Positions 4,343 through 57,895 of a stretch of DNA of 64,000 nt are shown piece by piece. The position numbers and the translations under genes were made by a program. Below the pieces are notes generated by a model, which saw only the letters and a list, made by a program, of their open reading frames with translations, was not told the DNA's origin and ran no database searches. Origin of the DNA: a virus. The stretch lies in the IMG/VR virus record IMGVR_UViG_3300005253_000070; one strand, 5' to 3'. Every line of letters begins with the position of its first letter. Positions within the stretch are counted from its first letter, which is position 1.

Positions 4343-4845
4343 TGGAGTTTCTGCTCGGAAGAGATTACCCACATCTATGTGACACATGCAGAGCAGCCAT
4401 TGACACGGCTGCTCTGCTGCTTGGGGAGGAGGGTCCCGATACAGACAACATCGAGGCACCGATCGACTTCGTCTATGACCACAGCCTCTACTGTGGTGGT
4501 CGCCAGACAGCATGCTACCATCCCACGAGGGACTACATCCAGTGGTACTTCATCCGCGTAGGTGACGACGATGTAGAGGGTCACGGGGACATAGCCAAAG
4601 CCATCGAACGAGCTGAATACTACAGAGACAGGTCGCACATTGGAAACCTGGACCTTCGCTTGATTGACGATGTTACAGGGGAGGTACTCTACTCCCTGTT
4701 CACCTACGGAAAGCATCAGCTTCGTGAGGAGAGACACGGAAGCATCAAGGATCTTAGAGAGAGGTTGGGTGTGCCCGACCCATCCGAATCCACTGAGCTG
4801 GTAGAGTTGTGCAAGAGTCTAGGTCTGAGCAAGGAGAAATCATAG
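4342..4845 (+). CDS. hypothetical protein
   Basis: 167-aa ORF. Its start overlaps the upstream stop by 1 nt (TGATG). No motif recognised. Confidence 0.55.
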   Translation: MEFLLGRDYPHLCDTCRAAIDTAALLLGEEGPDTDNIEAPIDFVYDHSLYCGGRQTACYHPTRDYIQWYFIRVGDDDVEGHGDIAKAIERAEYYRDRSHIGNLDLRLIDDVTGEVLYSLFTYGKHQLREERHGSIKDLRERLGVPDPSESTELVELCKSLGLSKEKS

Positions 4846-11121: not shown

Positions 11122-11607
11122 ATGAAAGAGATTCTGCTCACTCAAGGATATGTTGCTCTCGTCGACGATGAAGACTACGAGTGGTTATCACAGTGGAAAT
11201 GGTATTCACACCGGGGGAGTAGTAGTGGTCCTTGGGCAGAACGAAATTCTCCGCCGGATGACAACGGGAAGAGAAGTCCTGTGCTTATGCACAGACAAAT
11301 AATGGACGCTCCTTCAGATAGAGACGTGGATCATCACGATCATTGTATGCTGAATAATCAAAGGGCAAACCTGCGCGTGTGTACAACGGCGCAAAACATG
11401 GCAAATAGGCGCAAGTCGAGGGGATGCTCCAGTAGATTTAAGGGAGTGTGCTGGGACAAAGAGCACAAAAAATGGAGAGTGCGGATTGGAGTCAATGGCT
11501 GTTCAAGGCATCTTGGATACTGTGACGACGAAATGAAGGCTGCTCTTGTCTACAACAAAGAGGCAATAAAGGAGTGGGGAGAGTTCTCCCTCCCAAATAA
11601 TGTATGA
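11122..11607 (+). CDS. HNH homing endonuclease with C-terminal AP2 DNA-binding domain (copy 1)
   Basis: 161 aa. N-terminal LTQGYVALVDDEDYEW, HNH core VDHHDHCMLNNQRANLRVCTTAQN and AP2-like SSRFKGVCWDKEHKKWRVRI...YNKEAIKEWGEF. Confidence 0.85.
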   Translation: MKEILLTQGYVALVDDEDYEWLSQWKWYSHRGSSSGPWAERNSPPDDNGKRSPVLMHRQIMDAPSDRDVDHHDHCMLNNQRANLRVCTTAQNMANRRKSRGCSSRFKGVCWDKEHKKWRVRIGVNGCSRHLGYCDDEMKAALVYNKEAIKEWGEFSLPNNV

Positions 11608-12767: not shown

Positions 12768-13010
12768 GTGTTACTTTTGGACATCGTAGAAAGCCTCACT
12801 AACCGGGTGGCAACCCAGCCAGATGAGCGCACAGGAATAGCGAAGTGTATCTATTGCGGTGCACTCATCCTTGACGTATCTGGTCGGACTGCCCACGAAC
12901 ACAAAGCGTTTTGTGCCTGGCGTTTGGGTAAGGAGCTCGTACAAAAGAAGGCAAGTCGATGTGAAAGAGATCCCATTGACACAGGGCTACGTGGCTCTGG
13001 TAGACGATGA
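12768..13010 (+). CDS. small protein with C-x-Y-C...H-x-H-x3-C-x-W module; 3' end overlapped by HNH gene
   Basis: 80 aa with GTG start. Contains CIYCGALILDVSGRTAHEHKAFCAW, matching the C-terminal modules of 2733..3938 and 5916..6323. The last ~50 nt overlap the HNH ORF and there is almost no leader after the promoter. Confidence 0.4.
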   Translation: MLLLDIVESLTNRVATQPDERTGIAKCIYCGALILDVSGRTAHEHKAFCAWRLGKELVQKKASRCERDPIDTGLRGSGRR

Positions 13011-13443
13011 TGACTATGAGGAGCTATCTAAGTACAAATGGCACGTGGACCTCCAGCGTAGTGGGCCTAAAGCGAAGCGAAATTCTCTCGTAAGTGAGGG
13101 GGAAGGGCAGAAGGCCATCTACATGCACCGCCAGATCATGTATGCTCCAGCAGGAACGTATGTAGATTATAAGGATCACGACACGCTGAACAATCAGAGA
13201 GTGAACCTGCGTCCCTGCACGAGATCGCAGAACGCAGCCAATCAGCGCCCACAGGAGGGCTGCTCGTCCAGGTTCAAGGGAGTGTACTGGCACAAGGCAG
13301 CTAGAAAATGGCACGCCGCTATTCTCGTGGAGGGGAAGCGGAAGTATCTTGGCCTCTTTGTTGATGAAGTGAGAGCGGCCCAGGAGTACAACAAGGCCGC
13401 TCTCCAGCATTTCAAGGAGTTTGCCTTGCTGAATGTCATATGA
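12961..13443 (+). CDS. HNH homing endonuclease with AP2 domain (copy 2)
   Basis: GTG at 12961 was chosen by alignment with copies 1 and 3 (VKEIPLTQGYVALVDDDDYEELSKYKWH). HNH core is KDHDTLNNQRVNLRPCTRSQN and the AP2-like part is SSRFKGVYWHKAARKWHAAI. In frame with track ORF 12859..13443. Confidence 0.85.
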   Translation: MKEIPLTQGYVALVDDDDYEELSKYKWHVDLQRSGPKAKRNSLVSEGEGQKAIYMHRQIMYAPAGTYVDYKDHDTLNNQRVNLRPCTRSQNAANQRPQEGCSSRFKGVYWHKAARKWHAAILVEGKRKYLGLFVDEVRAAQEYNKAALQHFKEFALLNVI

Positions 13444-13523: not shown

Positions 13524-14234
13524 ATGTTTATCGAGACCGAGTTCCAGGTACATCTGACGACGTTGACAACTATGTTCGGGTCCTGCCCAAACGATCCCGG
13601 CATCTACGCGGAGCACTTGCAAGACGAGATAGACTCCAGTACACCTGAAGCTCGTGCAGAGATTGCTGCTCTGCCATACGACGAGGAAGAGGGTGACAAG
13701 ACAGACCGCACCACTGTGTTCCTACGTGTTGGGGATCTGCCTGGTATCCACAGCCACGTTATGAAAGGTTTCTTCAAGAGTGCTTGCGGAGCCTTGTGGG
13801 TAGTGGGTGGCACATTCTCGTCCAAAGTGCGAGCATACAAGAAACGCATCGACACTCTCATCTTCATCGAACCCCAGATCATCCCTCTCCATCCAGCAGA
13901 CAACGAAATCAAGAACCTGACTACGTACATAGATAAGACAACAGGACAGGTGGTTTGCGTTCGTCCACTGAGAGCAGAAACGGCTAAGGGACCCCGCGTG
14001 GCCTTGGCTAGATCCGAAGTGCTTCCACCAGGGACAGAACTGACATTCAAGATGATCATCGTGGGCAAGGTACCCAAGCTTTGGCGTGAGACAACCAAGA
14101 AGACACCCCTCCACGAGGAACTGCTGCACGAATGGCTGAGCTATGGTAGGAGACATGGATTAGGTTCTTGGAGAAATGCTGGGTGGGGCCAGTTCACGTA
14201 TGAGATGAAGAGGCTCACTCCAGAACCCAGCTAG
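13524..14234 (+). CDS. hypothetical protein with RAMP-like motifs (Cas7/Cas6-superfamily-like, unverified)
   Basis: 236 aa with GGAGGG RBS. Contains LPGIHSHVMKGFFKSA, SEVLPPGTELTFKMII and the C-terminal glycine loop GLGSWRNAGWGQF. Confidence 0.6.
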   Translation: MFIETEFQVHLTTLTTMFGSCPNDPGIYAEHLQDEIDSSTPEARAEIAALPYDEEEGDKTDRTTVFLRVGDLPGIHSHVMKGFFKSACGALWVVGGTFSSKVRAYKKRIDTLIFIEPQIIPLHPADNEIKNLTTYIDKTTGQVVCVRPLRAETAKGPRVALARSEVLPPGTELTFKMIIVGKVPKLWRETTKKTPLHEELLHEWLSYGRRHGLGSWRNAGWGQFTYEMKRLTPEPS

Positions 14235-14299
14235 GGCATTGGTCGACCAGAGGCGCTAGGAAAGGCAAAAGCCTCGATCGTAGCTCGCTGCGGCGGCCA

Positions 14300-14600
14300 T
14301 GTCAAGTTCAGCTGCGGCATAGATAGCGTGGCTTTGGCATTGATAGCCTTGATGTGCTTTGGCGAGGGTAGCAGAGGGATGCATGGCAACGGCAGAAGAG
14401 GTGCTAGGAGCAGCAAAGGCGTATTGAGGTGACGAGTGTGCAGCAAAGGCGTCTCCAGGTGCGGTAGGGAACGCAACAGCGTCTCAAGGCGAGGACGGTG
14501 TTGCATCGGCTCATCAAGGTGGAGCATCGTCGGGGCAAAGGCGGGGCAGGGATGGCACGAAATGCGGAGGATCAAGCAGCCTGCATAGGCACGATAGGGT
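14300..14600. repeat. degenerate tandem repeats (24-33 nt units) in a purine-rich non-coding region
   Basis: GCAGCAAAGGCGT-N4-AGGTG occurs at 14410 and 14440 (30-nt period). It is flanked by weaker units: GCAACAGCGTCTCAAGGCG at 14473, GCATCGGCTCATCAAGGTG at 14503, and units starting GCGGCATAG, GCATTGATAG, GCGAGGGTAG and GCAACGGCAG at 14314-14410. No + strand ORF is present. Confidence 0.6.
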
Positions 14601-14711
14601 ATCGTTCGCGCAGGCTGAGCTGAGCACGATCTTGTGAGGATACGCACTGGTGAAGGAAGGCACAGCAAAGCATATACACGCCTGAATGTCCAGTGAAAAA
14701 AGGAGAATCGC

Positions 14712-15083
14712 ATGGCTATCAAGTGGGGAATTCTAAGAAAAGAGATTGCAGCGGTCAGAGCTGGGATGTACGTGTTGAATCTGGTGTTGGAGGCGTCGAA
14801 GGTAGGAGGAGAGGTCGACGTGCCACTCCTGGGCAGAGAAGCACATAGGATGATGACACATAACCATGAGCATGGCTCACTCTCTTCCACAGAACTGGAA
14901 AAGATCAAGATGATATGCGCCGACGACGGGCGATTCCTTTGTCCATACTGTGGCTGTCCACACACAGGAGGAGATGACCCACAGATACTGGAAGACGGCA
15001 TCCTACAAAACATGCAGTGCACTCGATGTGAGGAGACATGGGACAATCACTACATCTTGATAGAAAGATTCAAAGGATTCTGA
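14712..15083 (+). CDS. zinc-ribbon protein, paralog family member 5 (with N-terminal extension)
   Basis: 123 aa with AAAAAGGAGAA RBS. Motifs LSSTELEKIKM...CPYCG-x21-CTRCEETW-x3-Y. Confidence 0.6.
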   Translation: MAIKWGILRKEIAAVRAGMYVLNLVLEASKVGGEVDVPLLGREAHRMMTHNHEHGSLSSTELEKIKMICADDGRFLCPYCGCPHTGGDDPQILEDGILQNMQCTRCEETWDNHYILIERFKGF

Positions 15084-15111
15084 CTGACGCGGGAGCAAAC
15101 CATTAAGCCGC

Positions 15112-15140
15112 TTGACAGCGCGGTTGAAGTATGATACTAT
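15112..15140 (+). promoter_or_regulatory. sigma70-like promoter TTGACA-N17-TACTAT
   Basis: TTGACA at 15112-15117, a 17-nt spacer and TACTAT at 15135-15140, in the gap after the stop at 15083. Confidence 0.5.
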
Positions 15141-15583
15141 CAAGAAAGCGACAGGCGGAGGTGACATTGGGATACGACATGCCCGACATACAAATCTTCT
15201 GGAAAAGGTCTCGTGGTGGATTGGAGTTTGGTGCGCCTATCACCTGCGTAACGTCTCACGTACTGGTTGATGGGGAGGTGGTTGAGTTTCCAAGGGCAGT
15301 AGCTCAGCTATTTCCTGGTGGATCAGCACAGGTATGCATCAGTCAGTCCAAAGAAATCAGCTGGATACTAGCAGGACCAAACAGAAGGTTCGTTCAAATG
15401 ACAGCCACTCTGTGGCTGTTCTATCTGGCATCCCTTAACGATGCTGCAATGGACAGCCTTACCTTGGACCTAGAAGATAAGGGGGAAGATGACACGGAAG
15501 AAGTGATGACAACACTCGACAGCATTCAGGCGTTCCTAAAATCAGAAGATAAGAAGAAAGGTACAACAGATGAAGCTGAGTGA
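15131..15583 (+). CDS. hypothetical protein (true start probably downstream: TTG 15167 or ATG 15179)
   Basis: 150-aa track ORF whose first ATG lies inside the predicted -10 box. GGAG at 15157-15160 favours an in-frame start at 15167 or 15179. Confidence 0.5.
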   Translation: MILSRKRQAEVTLGYDMPDIQIFWKRSRGGLEFGAPITCVTSHVLVDGEVVEFPRAVAQLFPGGSAQVCISQSKEISWILAGPNRRFVQMTATLWLFYLASLNDAAMDSLTLDLEDKGEDDTEEVMTTLDSIQAFLKSEDKKKGTTDEAE

Positions 15584-15905
15584 GTTTCAGGCAGGACACA
15601 AGGCGCTCGCCACCGAGATAGCCAAGATCATAAGAGCGGATATTTTCGAGACTACGTCCAAGCAACGAACATACACCCTCAACCGGCTGGAAAAGATGTC
15701 AGCATCGATCAGACAGGCAGACAAGATCTGCGCCCTGCTTGACACAGAGCCCAATTCTCCAGGGGAGGTCGCTCCTGTTTTTGGGGCGGCCATCGAGGAT
15801 GCTGTGCCGGTCACGAATGTGGTCAACATATCCGCCCCAAGCAAGGAAGACGAGTCTCCGACAGAAGAGAAACCTACTACCAAAGCAGGTCGACGCAGTA
15901 AGTAG
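15570..15905 (+). CDS. hypothetical protein
   Basis: 111-aa ORF overlapping the upstream stop. No motif recognised. Confidence 0.5.
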   Translation: MKLSEFQAGHKALATEIAKIIRADIFETTSKQRTYTLNRLEKMSASIRQADKICALLDTEPNSPGEVAPVFGAAIEDAVPVTNVVNISAPSKEDESPTEEKPTTKAGRRSK

Positions 15906-15962
15906 CCCGATCGAGGAAGGTGAGACTCTCTTGAGTGGCAGGCATCTTGGGAGTTTGGAGAA

Positions 15963-15999
15963 GTTGCATCCGCCTCTGCGGGTGGATGGGGATTGAAAC
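15963..15999 (+). repeat. solitary CRISPR-repeat-like unit A (37 nt)
   Basis: GTTGCATCCGCCTCTGCGGGTGGATGGGGATTGAAAC. Has an 8-bp stem (positions 5-12 paired with 19-26, one G-U), a 6-nt loop and a 3' ATTGAAAC. Lies between the stop at 15905 and the ATG at 16009, with no adjacent second repeat. Confidence 0.7.
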
Positions 16000-16008
16000 A
16001 AACAAACG

Positions 16009-16455
16009 ATGTATAGAGTAGGCATCTTGGAAGTGTGGCAAAGAAACATTCTTGTCGAAGCCGAAACGAAAGCAGCGGCTGTTGAGGCTGTGCTATCTTC
16101 CAAGGTGCCTGCTATGCAAGAAAGTCTGACCTACTTACGTATCTTAGATCCAAAGGAGTGGATGGTAGAGTCCACAGAGCCAGAGGAAATTCTAGCAGAA
16201 GCACTCGGTCTTGTTGGAGCACTATGCTCCATTATACAGATGAGTGGAGGAGACAAACGTGAGGTACTAGAGAGAGCAAAAGCGTGGGAAAACAGGTTCC
16301 TCGCATTTGCACAGGATGCTCAAGAGGCAGATGAACAACCAAGCAGAGTACAAGGCAACGAAGACGGAACAGATGAGCCTGACTTCAGTGGAGATGCTCT
16401 TCTCGGGGATAGTAAAATCCCTAAGCAAGCTGGGATATGGGACGTCAGTGGATGA
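16009..16455 (+). CDS. hypothetical small acidic protein
   Basis: 148-aa ORF starting 9 nt after repeat unit A. Codons 5-12 are duplicated upstream of the repeat. Confidence 0.55.
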   Translation: MYRVGILEVWQRNILVEAETKAAAVEAVLSSKVPAMQESLTYLRILDPKEWMVESTEPEEILAEALGLVGALCSIIQMSGGDKREVLERAKAWENRFLAFAQDAQEADEQPSRVQGNEDGTDEPDFSGDALLGDSKIPKQAGIWDVSG

Positions 16456-16810
16456 CCCGAGAATCCCAGATTACGCGGAGGCAAGGTTACTTCGCAGCGA
16501 TTTCCTAGTGGCAGTGAGACGAAGAGATACTTCCGACATGTGCTACTCGCTTGCTCATGAGCTTGGACACATCATCTCCAATCCGCGAAACGATCTGGTA
16601 TCGGCATCGGAGATCAAAGCGGATCTGTTTGCCTGCTCTCTCCTCCTCATGTTTGGGATTGACAAGTCAAAAGAGTCAGCAGAGTACGTTCTCGGGTGGT
16701 TGAGGTATGGCCCAATGAGAGATACCTTCTGGATCGCCCAAAGGGAGCAAGAGATGAGACAGAGAGCCACAGATGAAGCACACAGAATCTGGAGGTACAT
16801 TAAAGAGTGA
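16373..16810 (+). CDS. ImmA/IrrE-like HEXXH metallopeptidase
   Basis: Contains SLAHELGHII followed by ADLFACSLL, a layout typical of ImmA/IrrE peptidases. Start is uncertain (ATG 16373 or 16394, in frame with track ORF 16307..16810) and overlaps the upstream gene. Confidence 0.65.
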   Translation: MSLTSVEMLFSGIVKSLSKLGYGTSVDDPRIPDYAEARLLRSDFLVAVRRRDTSDMCYSLAHELGHIISNPRNDLVSASEIKADLFACSLLLMFGIDKSKESAEYVLGWLRYGPMRDTFWIAQREQEMRQRATDEAHRIWRYIKE

Positions 16811-17070
16811 CAGTCGTTGACAAAGTCTACATAGCTGTCATGGTGAAGTCAGGAGGAACCCTGCTTAAGCGATCCGGCATTGTAAAAGCCATATGCAAAG
16901 AGCCTCGAGATGCAGTAACAGCGCTGAACCCGTCCCTCAAAAAGGTGTCAGTCAGGGTACCGGAGAGGGATAAGAGTGGAGTCACGATCTTCAGGACAGC
17001 ATCGAGGAGTGATGTCATGGTGATAGATCTGGACTCGCTTTATCAGGCACAATGTCAGACCCTCGACTGA
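16807..17070 (+). CDS. hypothetical protein
   Basis: 87 aa, GTG start overlapping the upstream stop (GTGA). Confidence 0.45.
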   Translation: MTVVDKVYIAVMVKSGGTLLKRSGIVKAICKEPRDAVTALNPSLKKVSVRVPERDKSGVTIFRTASRSDVMVIDLDSLYQAQCQTLD

Positions 17071-17921
17071 CCTCAGAAGAGTATGGTATTCTTCTGAGTA
17101 TGGAGGTCTCGTCCGAATACCAAGATGGATACAGGGACACCACAAGAATGGCAAGAGTAATTGTAGAAAGAGCCCCCCTGCACCGGCTAAAGAAGCTGTG
17201 TCAGGAGCTTGGTATTAGGCACACCAGCGTTGCTTCGCTGCTGATCCATCGTCATAACCACTCAATCAACGAGCAGTCTGCGGATTGGCTACATAGACTG
17301 GATCTCATACCCATCTCCCATCTTGCTACCCTGTCAATCAGCCATATTGCATCTCAGACAGCCTCTAATATCAGTCGGATTCTGAGATGTAAGAAGGGAT
17401 CTGTAGCCACAGCCGTTCTACTAGACTGTCTACCTGTGTTGGCGACGATGCCTGAGACAATCCCAGGGATCAAGAGCCTGATCAGATACCCCTCCAGAAG
17501 TAGGAGGTCAATTGGCCTGTACAAGACGACTAGAGACAAGGTTAGCGCTAGATGTAGGCTATTGGCTGACGAGACAGATGAGAGACTGTCTGTTTCTGAC
17601 TACGTCCGGACAGCTCTCAGCACTGTGCCAACAGCCGAGATAGAATCGATACTTCGAAGCGAAGACTTTGCTGTTGCCCTAAGCAACACAGCGGAAAAGA
17701 GCAAAGTTTCCTGCATCGAGGTGGATACAGGACTGTATGAGTATCTCAAGGATCTAAGTAAGTATCTCGGATGCTCAGTCACTCGTATAGTGTCATTCTT
17801 CATCGATGAAGAGTTGCACGCTACAGAGCAGGGGTTCAAATATGAGGAAGAGGTCATCTCATTGAACCCAGTGAGTCGGTGGAAGACAATCCTCAATCAC
17901 TACATTCGATCCGGGAACTGA
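17052..17921 (+). CDS. hypothetical protein
   Basis: 289-aa ORF. No motif recognised. Confidence 0.55.
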   Translation: MSDPRLTSEEYGILLSMEVSSEYQDGYRDTTRMARVIVERAPLHRLKKLCQELGIRHTSVASLLIHRHNHSINEQSADWLHRLDLIPISHLATLSISHIASQTASNISRILRCKKGSVATAVLLDCLPVLATMPETIPGIKSLIRYPSRSRRSIGLYKTTRDKVSARCRLLADETDERLSVSDYVRTALSTVPTAEIESILRSEDFAVALSNTAEKSKVSCIEVDTGLYEYLKDLSKYLGCSVTRIVSFFIDEELHATEQGFKYEEEVISLNPVSRWKTILNHYIRSGN

Positions 17922-17924
17922 GAA

Positions 17925-18203
17925 ATGATGTGCGCAGCCGCATTTGTGGGCGCCATCTTTGGACTGGCTCTGCTTTCTCTTTGGCTCAAGATGGTACTCA
18001 ACGAACCAAGGCCCCCACCGCCTATGCCCATTGCTACGACAAAGGAGATCATGGATCTGATCCTTGGAGAGGAAAGCGAGGAGAGTGAGGAAGAAGAAGA
18101 AAACGGCACCACATACGTGTACACGGAGGGCGGAGTGGCCAAAGAAGCCAAGCCAGGTACTGAGATGCATCGTCTGATCGAACAAGTCGTAAGGAGGCGA
18201 TAG
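17925..18203 (+). CDS. membrane-anchored protein with acidic stretch
   Basis: 92 aa. N-terminal hydrophobic helix AAAFVGAIFGLALLSLWL, a PPPP segment and EESEESEEEEE. Confidence 0.5.
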   Translation: MMCAAAFVGAIFGLALLSLWLKMVLNEPRPPPPMPIATTKEIMDLILGEESEESEEEEENGTTYVYTEGGVAKEAKPGTEMHRLIEQVVRRR

Positions 18204-19004
18204 ATGCTCGATAGCAACCAAACTAGAGATATGAAGCTGCTGCGCTTGATGGGACAGGAGCGGCGATTCCAAGTTCTCCTGCTCCTGTGTAAGAGACAGA
18301 TGTCACACGAGGAGATCTGCCTTGCCCTCGGAAAGCCGATGGGTGTGTACAAGCACCTGAAGGGTATGGTTGAGGCCGGGCTACTGATTCGCACGGATAT
18401 CACATCGAGGGACGTTGTGTACAGGGCTAACCCAAAGGTTCTGGAAGAGGTAGGCATGTGCCTACAAGACATGGCCACCGATGCTCACGAGATCTCGTTT
18501 CGGATAGCACATGGCATACCAGACGAAGAAATGGACGAGAAGCCGGCCCATGCAGATAGGCGGTTTGAGGAGGTAGAAGCTGTGAGAGACACCCATCGGG
18601 AGGAGCAGCGACGAGCAAGAGATGCAGAAACAGGCAGGTGCTACGACTTGTGTATCGCCGAAGATGATGAATGGGGCCGCCTAAATGCCAAGGGCCTGGA
18701 GGAGGAGCAGGATGAAAGGGCACAGAGAAGGGCACAGATAAAGACCACACCAGACGAGGACTCAGGAGACCCAGAGAGAAAGGCGGCACGCAAGGTAACT
18801 GCTGAACAACTGTTTGAGAAGCTGGCCGACATGGGCAAGGTATACGGACGTAAGCCGGAGGACATCATGCCAGACGTAGACGACGCAACCCGTAGAGAGA
18901 TGATGGCTATCCTCGGCGATGAGATAAAACCAGCAGAGTTGTCACAGGAAGAGATCGACAATGCTGCTGCGTTGTACGAAGAGACGAAGCTGGACGATGA
19001 ATAG
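18204..19004 (+). CDS. ArsR-like winged-helix transcriptional regulator with long charged C-terminal region
   Basis: N-terminus RFQVLLLLCKRQMSHEEICLALGKPMGVYKHLKGMVEAGLL fits the ArsR/SmtB wHTH pattern. The C-terminal ~170 aa are D/E/R-rich. Confidence 0.6.
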   Translation: MLDSNQTRDMKLLRLMGQERRFQVLLLLCKRQMSHEEICLALGKPMGVYKHLKGMVEAGLLIRTDITSRDVVYRANPKVLEEVGMCLQDMATDAHEISFRIAHGIPDEEMDEKPAHADRRFEEVEAVRDTHREEQRRARDAETGRCYDLCIAEDDEWGRLNAKGLEEEQDERAQRRAQIKTTPDEDSGDPERKAARKVTAEQLFEKLADMGKVYGRKPEDIMPDVDDATRREMMAILGDEIKPAELSQEEIDNAAALYEETKLDDE

Positions 19005-44766: not shown

Positions 44767-47151
44767 TCAACCACGCCTCGCGGCTGGAGTCATATCAGAG
44801 TACCTCCCTCTTATCTCTAGGAGGAGAGCGTCTTTGTTTCTTAAACTCTCCTCTCTGCGTACTCCGGTATCGTATCGATATGCGAAGAGCGGAAGCGGAA
44901 CCCTTGCGCCTCCATAGCCGTTCATACCCAACTTGATTTCGTAGTCCCAGTCCTCCCACAGTGCCAGATTTTCGTCGAACCCACCGATGTCGAAGAACGC
45001 CTTTCTCGGGTGGAGAAAGGTGATTGCAAACAGGGCGTGCAACTTCAAACGGTCCAGATTCCATGGCTCAGCTCTATGGGCTTTCCCTTCTGGCAATGCA
45101 TACCAGTCGGAATAGAAAAACATGGCATCATCTGGGCATTCCTCAGCAGCCAAGAGGGTTTCGTGAACATATCCCCGCATCAAGTAGTCATCCGCGTCCA
45201 CGAAAGTGAGATACCTTCCTCGAGTATGCATCACGCCGATATTTCTTGCTGCAGAAACGTTTCCGATCTTTTGATTTCGTACCCACCGCACCCACGGGTA
45301 AGCATCTCTGTACGGAACAGAGCCGTAGTCCTCCAGGTCTCCTTCCTTCGTATCGTCCACAACGATGACTTCCCATCGATCATCGATCTGACCGGCAATG
45401 GACTCCAGGGCGTCTTGCAAGAGAGTCTTGTGTCCATCCCAAACAGGGATAACAAAACTGACTTCCGGCCTGTCGTAGTTGGGAACAGGGTGGGAAACTT
45501 TGTTATCTGGAGCTATTCGAGCAGCGAATGGAATTGGCCCACCGTTGGCAACGGGAAGCCATGCCAACCAGCGAGGTTCTTCCTTTTCTGCCCTTCTGAT
45601 TTGCGCCGTGGAGCTCATCTTATGAACACGATACTGATAGACAGCTTCCTCTGTGCAGCGTTCGACATCGTAGCCGATCAAAGGAATCCTCGTCCACAAT
45701 TCAGCATCTTCTGCAGGAGCAGCGTGCTGTCTAAACCCTCCTGCTCGCATAAATGCCCGTCTTCGCATCATATTGCACGATGGGACCTGGCATCTATTTT
45801 TCAGTTGTTGATCCATTCTAAACTTAGGGGGCCAGTCAGACTTTCTTCTGCTGACCTCTCCGGCCTCATTTATCGTAGCAAGTTTTCCATAAACCAAACC
45901 GAGAGTCGCCTTCTGAGTGATGCCCGTGAGAAGATCAACCAAGAAGTTTGGCAGCATCCTATCGTCTGCGTCAAGGAAAGAGAGGAACTCACCAGAGGAT
46001 GCCATGGCGCCGCTATTTCTAGCAGCAGCCACACCCTGATTCGGTTGGTCAATCACGGTGAATCTGCTATCTCCTCTAACAGCAGCACGAATCACCTGCA
46101 AGGAGTCATCCTTGGATCCATCGTTCACAACGATGCACTCCCAATTGTCATACGTTTGCGCCTTGACTGATTCAATGGCCTCCACCACGAAGGAGCTATA
46201 GTTGTAGCAAGGAATGATGACAGAGATATGACCTTCCCTATCTCTGGCGATATTCCTCAGGGCCAAATCATAGACGGAGCGATACCTGCCCATCGATTTC
46301 GCCCACGTATACTCCAACGCACGCTTCCTAGCTGCTCGGCTTAGTTCTTGGTGATTGTCCTGGATGTACTGAAGGCCTCTCAGTGTGTCTTCCATATTTC
46401 CAGGCTCAGCAACGTACCCCTCTTTCTTGTGCCGCACAAGAAATGGAAGATGCCCCCATCGCCAACCAAGTACAGGAAGACCAGCAGCCATTGCTTCTAG
46501 TATACCAATTCCAAACGTCTCCTTTGTTGGAGCAAAGTAGATGTTTGAGGAGTAGACGACCTTCTTCATTTCTTGGTAAGTCATAGAGCCAATGACGGAC
46601 ACATTTGTGGCACGCTCGCCGAATGTCGTGATGAACTGCGTACCCAATGCCGCTTGGGCTAGCTCGTCTAGGGACTCAGGGGAGCAAACACCAAAGGTCC
46701 TATTCTTGTTCCAAAGAACTACCGGTGAATCAAATGAGTATGGCTTTTCTGGCCATTCATCAAAGCCCAATCCGTGTGGCACCACCTCTGGCCAGAACCC
46801 CATATCTCTTGCAAATAGCTCAGCCACCCACGGACTTGGCACAGTGACGACTGATGCCTCCCGCGCCGAATCAATGACCAACTGGTTGATTCTCCACATC
46901 CAATTTTCCATCTCAGCAGGCTCGGCTGTTGGGTACAACCCATGGCAGTGAAGAACATCTATCTTGCGAGTTCGCATGTTATGTGAATGTATATGTCCCG
47001 CAAACAAGTCCGCGTTTTTCTCGCTTCCTACAAAAGAGATCCCATAGTCTGGGAGCATGTTGTGCATTCGTCGAATCACAATGTCAACACCGCTACGAAG
47101 TTTCTCCTCAGGCTTCGGGGGTGGAATAAGGTGTAGCTTTATTTCCTTCAT
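44767..47151 (-). CDS. three-domain glycosyltransferase (GT4-like GT-B + two GT2-like GT-A domains)
   Basis: 794 aa. The N-terminus has ETFGIGILEAMAAGLPVL (GT4 E-x7-E region). Then VIIPCYNYSSF...VVNDGSKDD...FLDADD, followed by FVIPVWDGHKT...VVDDTKEGD...FVDADD. Confidence 0.85.
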   Translation of the reverse strand: MKEIKLHLIPPPKPEEKLRSGVDIVIRRMHNMLPDYGISFVGSEKNADLFAGHIHSHNMRTRKIDVLHCHGLYPTAEPAEMENWMWRINQLVIDSAREASVVTVPSPWVAELFARDMGFWPEVVPHGLGFDEWPEKPYSFDSPVVLWNKNRTFGVCSPESLDELAQAALGTQFITTFGERATNVSVIGSMTYQEMKKVVYSSNIYFAPTKETFGIGILEAMAAGLPVLGWRWGHLPFLVRHKKEGYVAEPGNMEDTLRGLQYIQDNHQELSRAARKRALEYTWAKSMGRYRSVYDLALRNIARDREGHISVIIPCYNYSSFVVEAIESVKAQTYDNWECIVVNDGSKDDSLQVIRAAVRGDSRFTVIDQPNQGVAAARNSGAMASSGEFLSFLDADDRMLPNFLVDLLTGITQKATLGLVYGKLATINEAGEVSRRKSDWPPKFRMDQQLKNRCQVPSCNMMRRRAFMRAGGFRQHAAPAEDAELWTRIPLIGYDVERCTEEAVYQYRVHKMSSTAQIRRAEKEEPRWLAWLPVANGGPIPFAARIAPDNKVSHPVPNYDRPEVSFVIPVWDGHKTLLQDALESIAGQIDDRWEVIVVDDTKEGDLEDYGSVPYRDAYPWVRWVRNQKIGNVSAARNIGVMHTRGRYLTFVDADDYLMRGYVHETLLAAEECPDDAMFFYSDWYALPEGKAHRAEPWNLDRLKLHALFAITFLHPRKAFFDIGGFDENLALWEDWDYEIKLGMNGYGGARVPLPLFAYRYDTGVRREESLRNKDALLLEIRGRYSDMTPAARRG

Positions 47152-47660
47152 GCTTGCACACCCCCAACGTGAGGAGAAGGAACATCATTCAACAAGGCAA
47201 ATTCACCCCATGCCTCAAGAGCAGCAACGTTGTAGGCACAGCCGGCATCTGCTTCATTCACAAAGCGCCCAAGATTCCTGTAATGTCCCGATACAAGTAT
47301 TTGAGCACGCCATTTCTTCTTCGGTTTGTCCCAGTAGACACCCTTAAATCTGGAACTTCCCCTAGTCTTCTTTCGATTCGCGGCGTTTTGAGATCTCGTG
47401 CACACGCGAAGGTTCGCAATCCTACGATTATCGAGTGTGTCATGGTTTACATGGTCAACGAGCACCCCCTTGGGCGCTTTCATGATCTGCCTATGCATAT
47501 AGATTGTCCCTGGTCTCTCTCCTTTGACTCTGGGGACATTGCGCACCGCTTTTGGACCACCTTGCATTGTACACACATGCCACCTGTACTTCGATAGCTC
47601 CTCGTAGTCTTCGTCATCCACTTTTGTCGCATAGCCCCTAGTGAGCTTGATTATTCTCAT
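47148..47660 (-). CDS. HNH homing endonuclease with AP2 domain (copy 3)
   Basis: ATG at 47660 lies 1 nt after the upstream stop and is in frame with track ORF 47148..47699. Motifs MRIIKLTRGYATKVDDEDYEELSKYRWH, VDHVNHDTLDNRRIANLRVCTRSQN and SSRFKGVYWDKPKKKWRAQI. The stop overlaps the GT start. Confidence 0.85.
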   Translation of the reverse strand: MRIIKLTRGYATKVDDEDYEELSKYRWHVCTMQGGPKAVRNVPRVKGERPGTIYMHRQIMKAPKGVLVDHVNHDTLDNRRIANLRVCTRSQNAANRKKTRGSSRFKGVYWDKPKKKWRAQILVSGHYRNLGRFVNEADAGCAYNVAALEAWGEFALLNDVPSPHVGGVQA

Positions 47661-47661
47661 G

Positions 47662-48444
47662 CTACAGCTTCTTGATCTCTGCCAGAATGCGAGCAGCAAC
47701 CTGTGCAGGAGTCCATATTCCTGGGGTGTTAAGGATCGTCATGCAGCGTTCTCTTCCTTGAGGAGATTCGTATGGATAACCCTCCCTCGGAGATAGGTTT
47801 CGATCGAGATAGATCCACCAAGGACGGGTGGGAGCCATTGCATCCTCAACGGAATTTCTGATAGACTCCGTAGGGGCTATTACAGACACAACAACGTTTC
47901 TGTATTTAACTAATTGCTTGGCCAGCCGTGCCACTCGAATGTTATGGGCAAGTCTCTCTTCGATCGAGAAACCAGCTCCTAGAGAGATCGAAGCTCTCAT
48001 CTCATCCCCATCCAGGTTCACAGCATTCAAGGGACCCAGGAGCTCGTTTGCTATCGTGGTCTTCCCAGCACCGGAGTTTCCCGTTATCCAATAAATGCGA
48101 TGTCCCCCGTCTTCTCGTATCGCCGTTCCGCTCACGTTGGACGCTCTTGGCGCGCTCACTTTTCGAACTTCCCATCCTGGAGTCCTTCCGTAGACGACCT
48201 CAACGATGTTTGGCACATTGATGATTATCATGCGCCCTTCTGCAATCTCCTCCTTGTAGAAGGCCTCGAAGGCTACCGTTCTTTGCGCTTGAGTGAAGGG
48301 GTTGCTGTCTGTTCCATCCTCTTTTCTTAGGGCGATGACAACGCGCCGTCCCTCACTGAGAACCTTGTCTATCAACGCGAAGTGCCCCCTGTGTGGCATC
48401 GGCACCTGAAAGCGTCCCAGAATCAAGCTATACTCTTTGGACAT
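47662..48444 (-). CDS. NMNAT/cytidylyltransferase-like nucleotidyltransferase fused to adenylylsulfate (APS) kinase
   Basis: ATG at 48444 follows AGGAGG. N-terminal domain has GRFQVPMPHRGH and VSGTAIR. C-terminal domain has WITGNSGAGKTTIA, LDGDEMR, GFSIEERLAHNIRVARLA and VSVIAPT, collinear with CysC. Confidence 0.75.
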   Translation of the reverse strand: MSKEYSLILGRFQVPMPHRGHFALIDKVLSEGRRVVIALRKEDGTDSNPFTQAQRTVAFEAFYKEEIAEGRMIIINVPNIVEVVYGRTPGWEVRKVSAPRASNVSGTAIREDGGHRIYWITGNSGAGKTTIANELLGPLNAVNLDGDEMRASISLGAGFSIEERLAHNIRVARLAKQLVKYRNVVVSVIAPTESIRNSVEDAMAPTRPWWIYLDRNLSPREGYPYESPQGRERCMTILNTPGIWTPAQVAARILAEIKKL

Positions 48445-48495
48445 ATTGACCCTCCTGAAGGTCCACCAGTTGCTTTGAATCCATTCCGTCATCCT

Positions 48496-49065: not shown

Positions 49066-49080
49066 CTGCAGGTCTCCTTG

Positions 49081-54346: not shown

Positions 54347-54370
54347 ATAAGGGAGGGCCGAAGCCCTCCC
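54347..54370 (-). terminator. intrinsic-terminator-like hairpin downstream of capsid gene
   Basis: On the - strand: GGGAGGGC-TTCG-GCCCTCCC followed by TTAT. Lies 84 nt after the capsid stop. Confidence 0.5.
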
Positions 54371-54395: not shown

Positions 54396-54432
54396 GTTTC
54401 AATCCCCATCCACCTCTGTGGGTGGATGCAAC
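54396..54432 (-). repeat. solitary CRISPR-repeat-like unit B (37 nt)
   Basis: The - strand reads GTTGCATCCACCCACAGAGGTGGATGGGGATTGAAAC, 30/37 identical to unit A with the same stem register. Lies in the 3' UTR of the capsid gene. Confidence 0.7.
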
Positions 54433-54453: not shown

Positions 54454-55887
54454 TTACCACTCCTTGTAGTAGCTTGGCGGCGTCGGGTAGTACTCGTCTC
54501 CACCCTTCTCGAAGTACGGGCTGGATGGGAAGGGCTCACGCAGATGCTGGAGCGGCTCGTACATGATGTTCTCGAGACGACCGGCTAGTTGGGGAGTCCT
54601 GAGCACCACTCGGGGCTCAATTTTCCCCTGGAACTTGAAACAGTAATTCAAGTTCTGCATGCTCCACATGTATCGGCCCCCATCGGTAACCCAAAACTGT
54701 CCCTTGTTCCGTAGCACAGCCAGATCGCCCTGAGCCTGTGAGTAGTCCAGATACTCCCAGTACAACGTCCTCATCCCCTTCGCCCGAAGCGGAAGGATGT
54801 AGATGTCGCTGGCAAACTGACCAGGGATCAGGTTTGCATTGGTCGCGTTATTGTCTTCGAAAATACCGTCATCAGTGATGACCGGAACCTGGAGACCGTT
54901 GATCCAGAGGTACTTTCCCCTCCGCATTTCGTCTCTCATGTTCACATTCGTCGCATCATTCATGATCACGACATTCGTACCCGCAGAGTTTGCACATCGA
55001 TCGGTGAGATACTGGCAGGGCCATACGGCGCTCAGCTCGAAGAAAAGCTGCGGTCGCATAGCAATGACCCAGTCCACAGGATCGAGGCTCATGCGCTCGG
55101 CGTTGTGGGTCAGATACTGCATCATCATCGAGAGATACTGAACGATGCTAGGAGAGGCTCCATCGATGCTGTTGAATCCAAAGTCTTTGATGTCTGAATC
55201 CAAAGCAGGGCAAGGAGACTGGCTGAGTGCGTCAACCTTTCCAGTCGAGACCAGGATCTCAAGTCCAGGAAACTCCGCATATCCGCCGTTGGTGTTGTTC
55301 ACAGGGTTGCCCTGGAAAAGCATCCTCGTAAGCCACCGCTGAAACTCAATGCCGATGATGACGAGCTGCGACTGAACAACAGAGTTCAGCCATCCGCCCT
55401 TGGGAACACCTTCCTGAGTCAACAGCTGATGACCCTCACCAATGACATCACCTAGAAGGCGAAGATCTGTGGTGAGTTTGTTATTCAACACCTGCATTAG
55501 CGTGTTGACTTCCATCTCTTTCGAGCTTCGTGCCACACGGCCAAAGGCAGCAGTCTGATGACAGACCTCGAGAACACCACCAGGGGCGTCATCACAGGGG
55601 CCATCCGGCTCAGCCGATCCATCCCCCTCAAAGCCGGTGAGGAAGGGGTAGATTGGGTTCAGGTAGACTGTTGGGATTGCCGGAATCATACCCGACATGC
55701 CCCGAGGAGAAATAGACGCATTGATAACCGTGTCTTCAAGACCAAAGTTGCTGAAGAAGCCCTTTGGTCCGAAGACGAGCTGTGCATTAGGAACACCGGA
55801 GATCGCCTTTTGCTGGATTTGATTACCAGCGAGGAGGGCGAGAGTCTTGTTGATGCCCTCCAAAATTGCAACTGTTTGCCTATCCAC
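54454..55887 (-). CDS. major capsid protein candidate (by position and size)
   Basis: GTG at 55887 lies 7 nt after GGAGGG. The track ORF extends to 55902 without an RBS. About 477 aa, directly after the protease/scaffold gene. No motif verified. Confidence 0.55.
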   Translation of the reverse strand: MDRQTVAILEGINKTLALLAGNQIQQKAISGVPNAQLVFGPKGFFSNFGLEDTVINASISPRGMSGMIPAIPTVYLNPIYPFLTGFEGDGSAEPDGPCDDAPGGVLEVCHQTAAFGRVARSSKEMEVNTLMQVLNNKLTTDLRLLGDVIGEGHQLLTQEGVPKGGWLNSVVQSQLVIIGIEFQRWLTRMLFQGNPVNNTNGGYAEFPGLEILVSTGKVDALSQSPCPALDSDIKDFGFNSIDGASPSIVQYLSMMMQYLTHNAERMSLDPVDWVIAMRPQLFFELSAVWPCQYLTDRCANSAGTNVVIMNDATNVNMRDEMRRGKYLWINGLQVPVITDDGIFEDNNATNANLIPGQFASDIYILPLRAKGMRTLYWEYLDYSQAQGDLAVLRNKGQFWVTDGGRYMWSMQNLNYCFKFQGKIEPRVVLRTPQLAGRLENIMYEPLQHLREPFPSSPYFEKGGDEYYPTPPSYYKEW

Positions 55888-57895
55888 TTTTGTTCCCTCC
55901 ACCGAGGAATGTGTCCATTAGGGCATCGCCCATGTCCTGGACAACACCTGCCCCGACGCTTTCTTGGTCGGCCTTTTCCTTCGCCGCTACAGTAGCATTA
56001 GGATCAACGGTTTTTGGATCGGTCGACGGACGAGTAAGCGATGCGCGAGTCGATTGATTCCGTCGCAGCGCCTGTACCTCAAATGAGACGGAGGCGAGTT
56101 GGTCAGACATCTCTTTCACCAAGCCGGCTAGAGCTTCCTGCCCTTCGTCAGCAGTGAAATTCGGTGGATCGGAGGCGACTTCTTTGGCCTTTTTCTTGGC
56201 CTTGCCGTCCTTACCATCCTCGTCGTCTTCGTCTTCCTCTTCATCTTCCTGTTTCTTCTTCTTGGCCTTCTCAGCCAAGGAGAGGAAGGCTACCTTGAGT
56301 TCACAGTCTGGCAGGTCACCCATCGCCTTTATGAACAAGTCATTTGGGTCAGGTTCCTGGGTGTCTTCCTTCTCCTCCTGGTCGGGAATGTGTGACACGA
56401 AGACAGCAGCACTCTTGAGTATCTGCTTGTGATCTTCGTTTTCCTCCGCGTCGACCATCATCAAGAGCTCTTTCACCAGGTTATCTCGTGAGATCTCCTC
56501 GTCCTTGAAGATGGCATCCGGCTCGACTGACTTAGCATTGATTCCATCCGCCTGAGAGACTGCTTTCGTGGCCAGTTCATCGCCGAGCAGCTCTCGGAGA
56601 ATGGCAATCTTGTGTTGCAACATTTCTGGTTCTCCTTCAGTAGTGATCCGAGAGAAGACATTCGCAGACTGCTGGACAGGAAGTAATGATCTCTCTAGGA
56701 TCGCAATGCTGTGATAAACGTTATTGACTCTTTTTCCTCGCACATCGACGTTGCGTTCCTTATCTGTTGGGTCAGAAAGGAATGCAATGCTGATCGCCCA
56801 TCTTTCAGGGTGCCTCGATGTTTCTTTCCTGGCCTGCTGGCTAACTGCATCGTTGTACCACAGGCCGGATTCTATCAGACACAACCCATCGTGCATCGCA
56901 AAGTCGCAGTTGCCGAAGTCGACACCCCTCACGTGCCAAAAACGCAGTGGACCACGGTCTTTGACCACACTGTCTGCAGACCTCTCCAATGCCTTGGAGG
57001 ATACGATGTCAAACTCACGGTCCATGAAAGCAGTGGACGAAATCGATACCCAACGATATTGTCCATCATGCTGCTTTGTGGTGAAGAACACGTTCTGCCC
57101 CTTGGTGATCGCAGGCTCTGGTGCTAACTCCTTCGTCAGCATCTGCCCCAACGAGGACCACACCTGGGAGAACTTATCCTTCCAACTCTTCGGCTTTGCT
57201 CGCGTTCCCATGAGAGGTGCTCCACAATCGGGGCAGACCTTGTCTACACAAGCTGCACCCTTCGAGTGGTCTCCGGAGTAGCCGCACTCCTTGCAAACAC
57301 AGGTGCCTACTCCATCCTCTAGGACCGCTTTCTCTTGCCCTCCTGATTTTATATCCAACAGAGCAGGGGCTGGAAGAACACTGGTCCCGTCTGATTTCCG
57401 CGTCTCCTCGGTCACCGACGCTCCCTCTTCCTGCTCAGAAAGAACTTTGTCCACAGACAGGTTTACTTGCCTGTGCGAATGCTCCATGCCCCATCCCTTG
57501 TGTGTTTTCCCCGCAAGGTAGGTTGCAATCTTGTCCCACGTTTCCGGAGTTATCTCTGCTACCTCGTCAAGCCATACCAAAGGAGATCCTAAGGCATTCT
57601 CCTTTTTCACAGGCCATGACACCACACCAACTCGCGGAAGCTGCAGGTGATGCTGCACGGAACCGTCTTTGGGGATAGCACCCGTGTTCATCCCAAGTCG
57701 CCATGCGAGATCCGCGACCAGTTGAACAAGGAGGTCCTTCTGCCTACGCTCCTCAGAAGACTCAATCGCACCTATTTGCGCCACTGCGGCCTCCCTACTA
57801 TCGTGACATCCCATTGACTTCCCTGCGGCTGTTCCGTCTGGGGACTTCTTGAACACACAATGCTGTCCGCCTTGCATAACGATGGTGTATGGCAT
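55880..57895 (-). CDS. prohead protease / scaffold fusion candidate with internal zinc ribbon
   Basis: 671 aa. The central region (RFWHVRG...ISIAF...ILERSLLPVQQSAN) resembles HK97-type prohead proteases. Also has CKECG...CPDCG, the acidic run QEDEEEDEDDEDGKDGK and a helical C-terminus. Confidence 0.5.
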   Translation of the reverse strand: MPYTIVMQGGQHCVFKKSPDGTAAGKSMGCHDSREAAVAQIGAIESSEERRQKDLLVQLVADLAWRLGMNTGAIPKDGSVQHHLQLPRVGVVSWPVKKENALGSPLVWLDEVAEITPETWDKIATYLAGKTHKGWGMEHSHRQVNLSVDKVLSEQEEGASVTEETRKSDGTSVLPAPALLDIKSGGQEKAVLEDGVGTCVCKECGYSGDHSKGAACVDKVCPDCGAPLMGTRAKPKSWKDKFSQVWSSLGQMLTKELAPEPAITKGQNVFFTTKQHDGQYRWVSISSTAFMDREFDIVSSKALERSADSVVKDRGPLRFWHVRGVDFGNCDFAMHDGLCLIESGLWYNDAVSQQARKETSRHPERWAISIAFLSDPTDKERNVDVRGKRVNNVYHSIAILERSLLPVQQSANVFSRITTEGEPEMLQHKIAILRELLGDELATKAVSQADGINAKSVEPDAIFKDEEISRDNLVKELLMMVDAEENEDHKQILKSAAVFVSHIPDQEEKEDTQEPDPNDLFIKAMGDLPDCELKVAFLSLAEKAKKKKQEDEEEDEDDEDGKDGKAKKKAKEVASDPPNFTADEGQEALAGLVKEMSDQLASVSFEVQALRRNQSTRASLTRPSTDPKTVDPNATVAAKEKADQESVGAGVVQDMGDALMDTFLGGGNKSG

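Follow-up and report, generated by a model that had tools for sequence, protein, structure and literature searches.

The closest described counterpart of the elements reported here is RacrIC1, a type I-C solitary repeat unit (SRU) that lies 11 nt downstream of acrIC5 in a Bifidobacterium pseudocatenulatum prophage and is co-transcribed with that gene (PMC10651486). On its own, RacrIC1 is sufficient to restore plaquing in the presence of type I-C targeting (Camara-Wilpert et al., 2023, PMC10651486), and a type I-F RNA anti-CRISPR (Racr), RacrIF1, has been characterized mechanistically (PMC10651486). The SRUFinder catalogue holds 2,103 viral SRUs, including genomes with two SRUs (PMC10651486), and the same article cites Faure et al. 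(2019) for viral SRUs. Here we describe two solitary copies of a CRISPR repeat, units A and B, in a 64,000-nt stretch of DNA from a virus (IMG/VR record IMGVR_UViG_3300005253_000070), the whole of which is referred to below as the window. Elements of this kind are already known; what appears to be new is a type I-C pair of SRUs, both of them Racr candidates, in a phage that its repeat family links to Chloroflexota. RNA anti-CRISPRs were reportedly described in 2023, only a handful being said to have been tested, and we know of almost no phage biology for Chloroflexota.

Two Solitary Repeat Units on Opposite Arms of a Phage Genome

Unit A (15963-15999 on the plus strand, GTTGCATCCGCCTCTGCGGGTGGATGGGGATTGAAAC) had been picked out in an earlier note made from the letters of the window, which gave its sequence and coordinates exactly. 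It is intergenic, as the note also had it, with the upstream stop codon at 15903-15905 and the next ATG at 16009, and is in the sense orientation for the plus-strand arm. As RNA, it has a 5' overhang of GUUG, a 9-bp stem (positions 5-13 with 18-26, including two G.U pairs) closed by a CUGC loop, and an 11-nt single-stranded tail, GGGAUUGAAAC, after the stem. The predicted folding energy was -14.9 kcal/mol (z = -2.9), and none of 200 shuffled sequences folded as well. The hairpin that the note had proposed is therefore real, although the minimum-energy fold has 9 bp and a 4-nt loop, through an additional U.G pair, rather than the 8 bp and 6-nt loop drawn there. The note's statement that the repeat is solitary, and not part of an array, also held: there was no second repeat within 300 nt on either side, where the best match was 17/37, below the shuffle mean of 18.

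A search of the window with the last 10 nt of unit A (positions 28-37) found unit B (54396-54432 on the minus strand, GTTGCATCCACCCACAGAGGTGGATGGGGATTGAAAC). It starts 21 nt past the stop codon of a gene at 54454-55902 on the minus strand and is sense-oriented for the minus-strand arm. When the AlphaFold model of this gene product was compared with the PDB using Foldseek, the top matches were all HK97-fold capsid proteins and encapsulins, with a probability of 1.00; a family search with the same gene gave no match. The model thus identifies the product as a predicted HK97 capsid protein, which places unit B within the 3' untranslated region (3' UTR) of the predicted major capsid gene.

Units A and B are identical at 30 of 37 positions, and all seven differences fall within positions 10-18, i.e., in the top of the stem and the loop. 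The probability that seven differences would all fall in 9 of the 27 positions not used in the query is C(9,7)/C(27,7) = 4e-5. Among the A-type units, i.e., those of the window and of two relatives, L026 and L074, together with a copy in the contig L016, only positions 10, 17, and 18 vary, and both of the A-type stem changes preserve pairing (G.U to A-U, and U.G to U-A).

The two units are also related in another manner. Reverse-complementing the 22-nt hairpin of unit B (window 54407-54428, CATCCACC-CACAGA-GGTGGATG) gives exactly the hairpin at 2963-2984 of L074, where the A-type unit reads CATCCACC-TCTGTG-GGTGGATG; the plus strand of both units thus carries the same hairpin with the flanks inverted. 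For a 6-nt loop, a chance match is expected about once in 4096 trials per variant, and the match suggests that unit B was derived from an A-type unit, or the reverse, by hairpin inversion or template switching.

Array Repeats of the Same Family Adjoin Type I-C cas Genes

A 19-mer common to units A and B occurs in 22 copies, at a spacing of about 73 nt, in one Anaerolineae genome (L004), whose array repeat (GTCGCATCCATCCGTGAGGGTGGATGGGGATTGAAAC, 37 nt) is identical to unit A at 31/37 positions. Directly upstream of this array are genes for Cas7/Csd2, Cas4, Cas1c (469 bits to the type I-C model), and Cas2. Of the seven genome matches of the 19-mer, six were attributed to chance, the hairpin being absent from them. 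With a looser pattern, 41 arrays were recovered from metagenome contigs, and these have 20 distinct consensus repeats between them, each of 37 nt; the array search pattern fixed positions 4-9 and 22-37. The commonest metagenomic repeat (GTTGCATCCACCAGCGATGGTGGATGGGGATTGAAAC) has exactly the ends and stem of unit B, only the loop being different, and another array variant is identical to unit B at 33/37 positions. The stem CAUCCACC/GGUGGAUG is common to unit B, the A-type units of L026 and L074, and three of the arrays (L039, L056, and L068), whereas unit A of the window has G at position 10 where the closest array stem has A. Overall, the units are identical to array consensus repeats at 30-33 of 37 positions, with mismatches confined to position 3 and positions 10-18.

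The arrays with the closest variants (L039, L056, and L068) adjoin genes for Cas8c/Csd1, Cas7/Csd2, Cas4, Cas1c, and Cas2. Indeed, every array of the family with readable flanks adjoins type I-C cas genes, and the named relatives of the array-linked Cas8c proteins are all from Chloroflexota. Across the 20 distinct array repeats, 97.8% of cells in the 9-bp helix are paired, and all four of the variable stem pairs show compensatory changes, the observed score being reached by none of 500 shuffles; units A and B fit this helix. A covariance model built from array repeats only found exactly two sites when applied to the 64 kb, i.e., unit B (52.8 bits, E = 6e-14) and unit A (49.1 bits, E = 8e-13), which lie 38 kb apart on opposite strands; everything else in the window scored 16 bits or less. 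The Rfam family CRISPR-DR9 (RF01322) also matched both units over 37/37 positions (30.7 bits for A and 30.1 for B, compared with 34 for the genuine repeats of L004). These matches surfaced at a permissive threshold; at the gathering threshold of 45 bits, which the genuine L004 repeats do not reach either, the window units were unmatched.

By length and sequence, both units can be assigned to a type I-C CRISPR repeat of the Chloroflexota GTYGCATCC...GGATGGGGATTGAAAC sub-family. In anatomy they are also like Cas5c substrates, which are hairpins bounded by a short overhang on the 5' side and one of 11 nt on the 3' side (PMC8524198). The two or more spacer-separated repeats of a CRISPR array or mini-array are absent; instead, each unit is an intergenic match to a known repeat, on a phage, with no partial repeats and no cas genes, as in SRUs. 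The earlier note had described unit A as a type I/III repeat ending in the 8-nt handle left by Cas6. That part of it has to be revised: the arrays adjoin type I-C genes, so the processing enzyme would be Cas5c with an 11-nt handle, and the tail after the stem is indeed 11 nt rather than 8. Type I-C systems have no Cas6, the repeat being processed by Cas5c, which leaves an 11-nt handle (PMC8524198, PMC10651486). The 8-mer AUUGAAAC is contained within this longer handle. The lack of any array with a similar repeat, which the note had named as counting against its reading, was not borne out, since an array in one Anaerolineae genome and 41 metagenomic arrays carry this 37-nt family.

The same data bear on the idea that the units are generic terminators or hairpins of the repetitive extragenic palindrome (REP) type, with a chance resemblance to CRISPR repeats, to which we attach a negligible probability. 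Both are stable intergenic hairpins, as such elements are, but each matches a 22-base specified pattern that would be expected about 4e-8 times in 128 kb. In addition, both gave full-length matches to CRISPR-DR9 and to the array model, no T-run follows either of them, and unit B stands beside a separate conserved hairpin that is retained in relatives without the unit. The array 19-mer, the metagenomic arrays, the covariation of the helix, and the array-only covariance model together effectively refute this explanation.

Units A and B as Candidate RNA Anti-CRISPRs

We think it likely, on balance, that units A and B are type I-C SRUs acting as RNA anti-CRISPRs. The earlier note had proposed such a role for unit A, and this is the best reading available, with RacrIC1 as a validated type I-C precedent. 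Unit A would be transcribed with the early operon, and the major capsid mRNA would carry unit B. Cas5c would then bind and cleave the unit RNA, and Cas5c, Cas7, and Cas8c would polymerize on the handle-bearing phage RNA, becoming locked in non-productive complexes. The effector would in this way be titrated off genuine anti-phage CRISPR RNAs (crRNAs), as it is by Racrs. The pseudo-guide 3' of each unit is the phage's own sequence but, because it is preceded in the DNA by ...AAC and not by a TTC protospacer adjacent motif (PAM), it should not direct self-cleavage. TTC is the type I-C PAM, and CRISPR arrays are protected from self-targeting in the same way, i.e., by the absence of a PAM.

Several features are consistent with this proposal. 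The units match array repeats in length, in the 4-nt 5' overhang, in the covarying 8-9-bp hairpin, and in the invariant 11-nt tail. Cas5c reads the cut site and the downstream 3' handle, and not the loop or 5' overhang (PMC8524198; PMC10651486), and differences restricted to the loop and stem top are the pattern expected for such an enzyme. Both units are sense-oriented inside apparent operons, as is RacrIC1, and their sense, intergenic placement, with unit B in the predicted capsid 3' UTR, fits a dose-dependent decoy. With one unit in an early operon and the other in the capsid mRNA, the layout suggests that decoy RNA would be supplied throughout infection.

Other observations weigh against a Racr role. 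When 549 spacers from arrays of the family (21 from L004 and 528 metagenomic) were compared with the window, the best matches were 15 nt exact or 17/18, i.e., those expected by chance, so that it is only the repeat family that points to a Chloroflexota bacterium as the likely host. The window has a GC content of 52%, compared with 57-69% in most array-bearing contigs. There was no promoter-like motif within 250 bp of unit A; Racr candidates have been selected using a promoter within about 250 bp upstream (PMC10651486). No acr or aca gene was recognizable near the units in Pfam, PHROG, and PDB searches; proximity to acr genes, which is frequent for Racrs, counts as supportive and not as required. 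Unit B is missing from a relative with 97% identity, and is thus dispensable. Finally, the pattern used to retrieve the arrays came from the units themselves, so that the constancy of the array repeats at positions 4-9 and 22-37 is partly built in.

Like RacrIC1, each unit is a single mimic of a type I-C repeat on a phage, in the sense orientation and a few nucleotides from a protein gene. The hairpin-plus-tail anatomy is also shared, RacrIC1 being co-transcribed with its gene without a dedicated promoter, and processed by Cas5. The units differ from RacrIC1 in belonging to a 37-nt Chloroflexota repeat sub-family, and hence to another host phylum, and in having no recognizable acrIC partner gene. 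There are also two of them per genome, one early and one in the predicted capsid 3' UTR, and both are candidates, whereas RacrIC1 is a validated anti-CRISPR. As with the catalogued viral SRUs, they belong to a known repeat family and are intergenic, on a virus, and without a partial repeat or cas genes nearby; unlike those, they have an insertion history that can be reconstructed from empty and filled sites. The exact repeat sub-family, and the contigs L008-L010, were not found in the part of the published SRU tables that was compared, which is not evidence of their absence. Like the units, the repeats of CRISPR-DR9 are 37 nt long and have a hairpin between a short 5' overhang and a tail of 11 nt that ends in GGAUUGAAAC, whereas, in contrast to type I-C array repeats, the units have neither spacers nor adjacent cas genes. 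In the 32-nt repeats of Firmicutes the 5' overhang is 2 nt (PMC8524198), versus 4 nt in the units.

The mode of action proposed for the units is that of RacrIF1, in which a repeat mimic binds the processing nuclease and Cas7, forming an aberrant sub-complex and competing with crRNA in a dose-dependent manner. However, with RacrIF1 it is Cas6f that is bound, at the hairpin, whereas in type I-C systems Cas5c sits on the 5' handle, and we infer that the species trapped by units A and B would be the downstream, handle-bearing fragment. The units predict a host with a type I-C system bearing a GTTGCATCCACC...GGTGGATGGGGATTGAAAC repeat, and A and B, in which the loops differ and the handle is the same, form a natural pair of variants for establishing what Cas5c needs in a decoy.

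The position of the units also raises the question of whether the phage might exploit host Cas5c to process its own mRNAs. The capsid mRNA would then gain a protective 3' hairpin through cleavage at unit B, while a cut at unit A would separate gene 16009 from the cistron upstream and leave it with a short A-rich leader. We know of no precedent for phage use of host Cas5c on its own mRNAs, and consider this improbable. It is true that both units lie exactly at cistron boundaries in the sense orientation, that after unit A come an (AAAC)n leader and then an ATG without a Shine-Dalgarno sequence, and that the hairpin stays on the upstream product when Cas5c cleaves (PMC8524198). Close relatives, however, express these genes with no unit present, and the capsid gene already has a conserved 3' hairpin of its own.

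Because the units carry a complete 5' handle, they might instead be one-repeat guide genes, producing a crRNA-like RNA in which the handle plus downstream sequence, or upstream sequence plus the hairpin, loads host Cascade against a host or rival-phage sequence. A preprint (bioRxiv 10.1101/2024.12.27.630466) reports crRNA-like regulatory RNAs that arise from degenerate repeats in type I systems. Nevertheless, the 40 nt on either side of units A and B matched nothing in the cas loci compared, except homologous phage sequence. Moreover, the sequence downstream of unit A is the start of a gene of the phage itself, and there is no second repeat to set a 3' end, all of which makes a guide function very improbable.

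The window belongs to a tailed phage, whose genome is organized in two arms that converge. Its plus-strand arm encodes a primase, a DNA polymerase, a helicase, and a PD-(D/E)XK/AAA_24 recombination pair, and its minus-strand arm a large terminase, a siphovirus-type tail protein, and a glycosyltransferase cluster. Among about 40 of the window's open reading frames (ORFs) that were scanned there was no Cas family, the nearest being the generic PD-(D/E)XK nuclease of the recombination module. A nucleotide search of a phage collection with positions 14000-19000 gave no match. This gene content is relevant to a further possibility, i.e., that the units are homology handles for recombination with, or integration into, a host CRISPR array; the introduction of PMC10651486 cites such a role for SRUs as an earlier suggestion. 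The units share 28/37 nt exactly with the array repeats, and the phage has its own PD-(D/E)XK nuclease and AAA_24 recombination module, as would suit that role. Yet no integrase or recombinase was present among about 40 ORFs tested, and with its own DNA polymerase, primase, and helicase the genome looks lytic. If both units were used, the genome would be broken up or inverted, since they lie 38 kb apart in opposite orientations, and the chance that they serve as handles seems to us very slim.

Both Units Were Gained by Insertion

From a protein database we obtained relatives of gene 16009 with 89% (L074), 64% (L075), and 52% (L076) identity; none was found among viral contigs. In L075 and L076 the gene is present without the unit, and starts 25-29 nt past the upstream stop codon, i.e., these are empty sites. 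In L074 a unit stands directly between GAGGAAGGG and AAACG-ATG with no duplicate, while in L026, which is 91% identical to the window at the DNA level, both the unit and a 42-nt segment are present, as in the window. Similarly, unit B is absent at its site from capsid-gene relatives of 97%, 90%, and 64-67% identity, all of which keep the downstream hairpin. The empty sites imply that units A and B were each gained by insertion. By these comparisons unit B is evidently a recent, strain-specific gain, and one lineage appears to have acquired two units of the same family independently. Because the graded relatives preserve sites that are empty, filled, and filled with a duplication, they provide direct material on the origin of SRUs.

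The same series supports the view, expressed in the earlier note, that an insertion had duplicated the start of the gene. The core of the direct duplication (15940-15958 versus 16020-16038) is identical at 17/19 positions, with a local-alignment score of 28 compared with a maximum of 20 in shuffled sequences (0/500 shuffles, and 0/200 in a separate run). It is the same feature as the 23-nt duplication with 19/23 identities reported in the note, whose reading frames (VAGILGVWR from GTG 15935, and MYRVGILEVWQR from ATG 16009) were also correct. In L075 and L076, the empty sites, it is the true start of the gene to which the 42-nt segment aligns. Unit A landed in the start of gene 16009, within about the first 12 codons, which is why there is a duplication; this is a by-product of insertion rather than a working part, and only a variant with an intact start regenerated downstream could have survived.

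A similar arrangement occurs in an unrelated contig, L008 (IMGVR_UViG_3300037067_002744, 4450-4510), in which one exact 37-nt unit lies between perfect 12-nt duplications, CATGCCTAAGGT, at a site where the stop codon of one late gene formerly overlapped the start codon of the next. At a gene start or gene overlap, an inserted unit can persist only when the junction is present twice, which explains the duplication without invoking a function. In L008 the upstream copy of the ATG and the unit together form a 14-codon mini-ORF that ends at a TGA in ATTGAAAC, 4 nt before the real ATG, and the mini-ORF layout of the window is analogous. Duplications of 10 nt in L011/L028 and of 9 nt in L015/L042 border the units there as well; there was none at unit B or at several other units.

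Solitary units of this family were found in at least three other viral contigs. They came from the looser pattern, a viral scan with a strict pattern demanding the stem of the units having returned nothing. The contig L016 (SDBT01294619.1, 197-233) has a unit identical to the A-type unit of L026 and the same GC content as the window (52%), with flanks unrelated to the window. Either this marks a third site of insertion, in a related phage, or the unit has been transferred between phages. In the related-phage stretches examined, no other repeat families were found.

This history could also be read as neutral, with recombination with a host array, or copying from one, leaving functionless single repeats that are tolerated between genes. 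Neither unit is essential, B being absent from the 97% relative and A from those of 52-64%, and the region of unit A is messy, with its decayed duplicate and AAAC slippage. On the other hand, two units of one family were gained independently by one lineage, both in the sense orientation, and solitary units of the family recur in the other viral contigs. In addition, the seven differences between A and B all avoid the parts recognized by Cas5c (P = 4e-5), and the A-type stem changes keep pairing. We therefore regard functionless scars as unlikely, albeit with an appreciable chance of being correct, and prefer the RNA anti-CRISPR reading.

As to how the units were acquired, they might have been captured from host arrays as exact single-repeat cassettes, via homology between spacer and protospacer or by off-target integration by Cas1-Cas2, leaving target duplications no longer than a spacer or repeat. 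We consider this a rather unlikely origin, for which there are nevertheless several hints. The insert in L008 is exactly one 37-nt repeat between its perfect 12-nt duplications, and at about 27-35 nt the duplicated segment of the window and L026 is near the spacer length of 34-37 nt. Furthermore, TTC directly precedes GAGTrGGCATC, at which the duplicated segment starts, in L075 (1858-1870) and L076 (130-142). The empty sites read ATG-TTT-CGA-GTA and ATG-ATT-CGA-GTG, and the window reads ATG-TAT-AGA-GTA at 16009-16020, the TTC having been lost and replaced by ATA. This could be the change that an escape mutant would show, the insertion site having once been a protospacer, although the start of the duplication is fuzzy, so that the coincidence with TTC is only weakly significant. 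Arrays of the family also contain duplicated spacers flanking a repeat (L004). Within L004 3818-4736, one spacer occurs three times (at 3818, 4181, and 4698) and two others are partly duplicated (at 4472 and 4553), and layouts with a repeat between identical spacers thus occur in this repeat family. If capture did take place, the site of an SRU would be that of a former protospacer, and an anti-CRISPR would have its origin in the targeting itself.

Neighboring Genes and Other Features

The coordinates of the units and of the features around them are given in Table 1.

Table 1. Positions of units A and B and of features near them in the window
Feature	Position	Strand	Description
Solitary repeat unit A	15963..15999	+	37 nt; in early plus-strand operon of small unknown genes
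(AAAC)2 extension of terminal AAAC of unit A	16000..16007	+	Copy number differs among relatives
Possible mini-ORF	15931..15996	+	TTG start after GAGGAAGGTGAG, reads through unit A, stops at TGA inside AUUGAAAC; mechanical ORF only
Sigma-70-like promoter motif TTGACA-17-TACTAT	15112..15140	+	About 825 nt upstream of unit A, nearest on its strand; motif match only
42-nt segment	15921..15962	+	In window and L026, not L074; holds decayed copy of codons ~3-12 of gene 16009
Downstream functional duplicate copy	16020..16038	+	Inside gene 16009
Gene downstream of unit A	16009..16455	+	148 aa, function unknown; 5' end duplicated
Gene upstream of unit A	15570..15905	+	111 aa, function unknown; conserved in L074 and L075
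Solitary repeat unit B	54396..54432	-	37 nt; perfect 8-bp stem CAUCCACC/GGUGGAUG, loop CACAGA, ends as unit A
Predicted major capsid protein gene (HK97 fold)	54454..55902	-	AlphaFold model, pLDDT 76
GC-rich UUCG hairpin GGGAGGGCUUCGGCCCUCCC	54351..54370	-	Downstream of unit B; kept in relatives without the unit

The earlier note had placed a promoter about 850 nt upstream of unit A. The motif is present, with 10/12 matches, an N17 spacer and a TG, albeit at a distance of about 825 nt; however, promoter-like motifs are no commoner in the region of unit A than in shuffled sequences (4 versus 3.6), so that the motif by itself is weak evidence. No promoter-like motif lies near unit B. Beyond unit A, one extra copy of AAAC follows in L074 (2992-2999), two in the window (15996-16007), and four in L026 (665-684), and L061 has a comparable run of AAGC/AAAC/CAAC. 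The run looks like slippage, altering the distance between the unit and an ATG that lacks a Shine-Dalgarno sequence.

The note had also suggested the small ORFs on either side of unit A (15570 and 16009) as candidate anti-CRISPR proteins, which our results do not support. The neighboring ORFs 15131, 15570, and 16009 had no match above cut-off in Pfam, and none in PHROG or among PDB sequences; gene 16009 gave a weak match to the DpnD/PcfM N-terminal domain, under the Pfam cut-off. Since the flanking ORFs persist in relatives that lack the unit, nothing ties them to unit A. The database entry for the product of gene 16009 (P0001) has 140 aa, i.e., it is 8 residues short, and a start at GTG 16033 would fit it. 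In relatives, however, the full MxRVGILEVW N terminus is kept from the ATG, making 16009 the better start.

Downstream of unit B, the UUCG hairpin is a putative terminator or 3' stabilizer; lacking a T-run, it was not called by a terminator scan. In a 66% relative, L070, the sequence after the capsid stop codon (4444-4470, TAGTTGAATCCCCCATTG) is similar to unit B at its 5' end, taken in context (TAGTTGCATCCACCCACAG), without the 3' half; it could be what is left of a unit, or the likeness could be fortuitous.

Elsewhere in the early region, paralogous genes at 11122-11607 and 12859-13443 on the plus strand share an 80-nt 5' region that is 74% identical (MKEILLTQGYVALVDDEDYEW...). Their counterpart in L074 carries an HNH_3 domain, and they are probably duplicated homing-type HNH endonucleases. 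Directly downstream of the predicted capsid gene, positions 44767-53393 on the minus strand form a variable sugar-modification cassette encoding a UDP-glucose dehydrogenase and glycosyltransferases, with tandem paralogues at 51362-51988 and 51985-52644. Its counterparts encode a sulfotransferase and an epimerase in L077 (4541-7437), and a glycosyltransferase and a methyltransferase in L079 (4537-7482).

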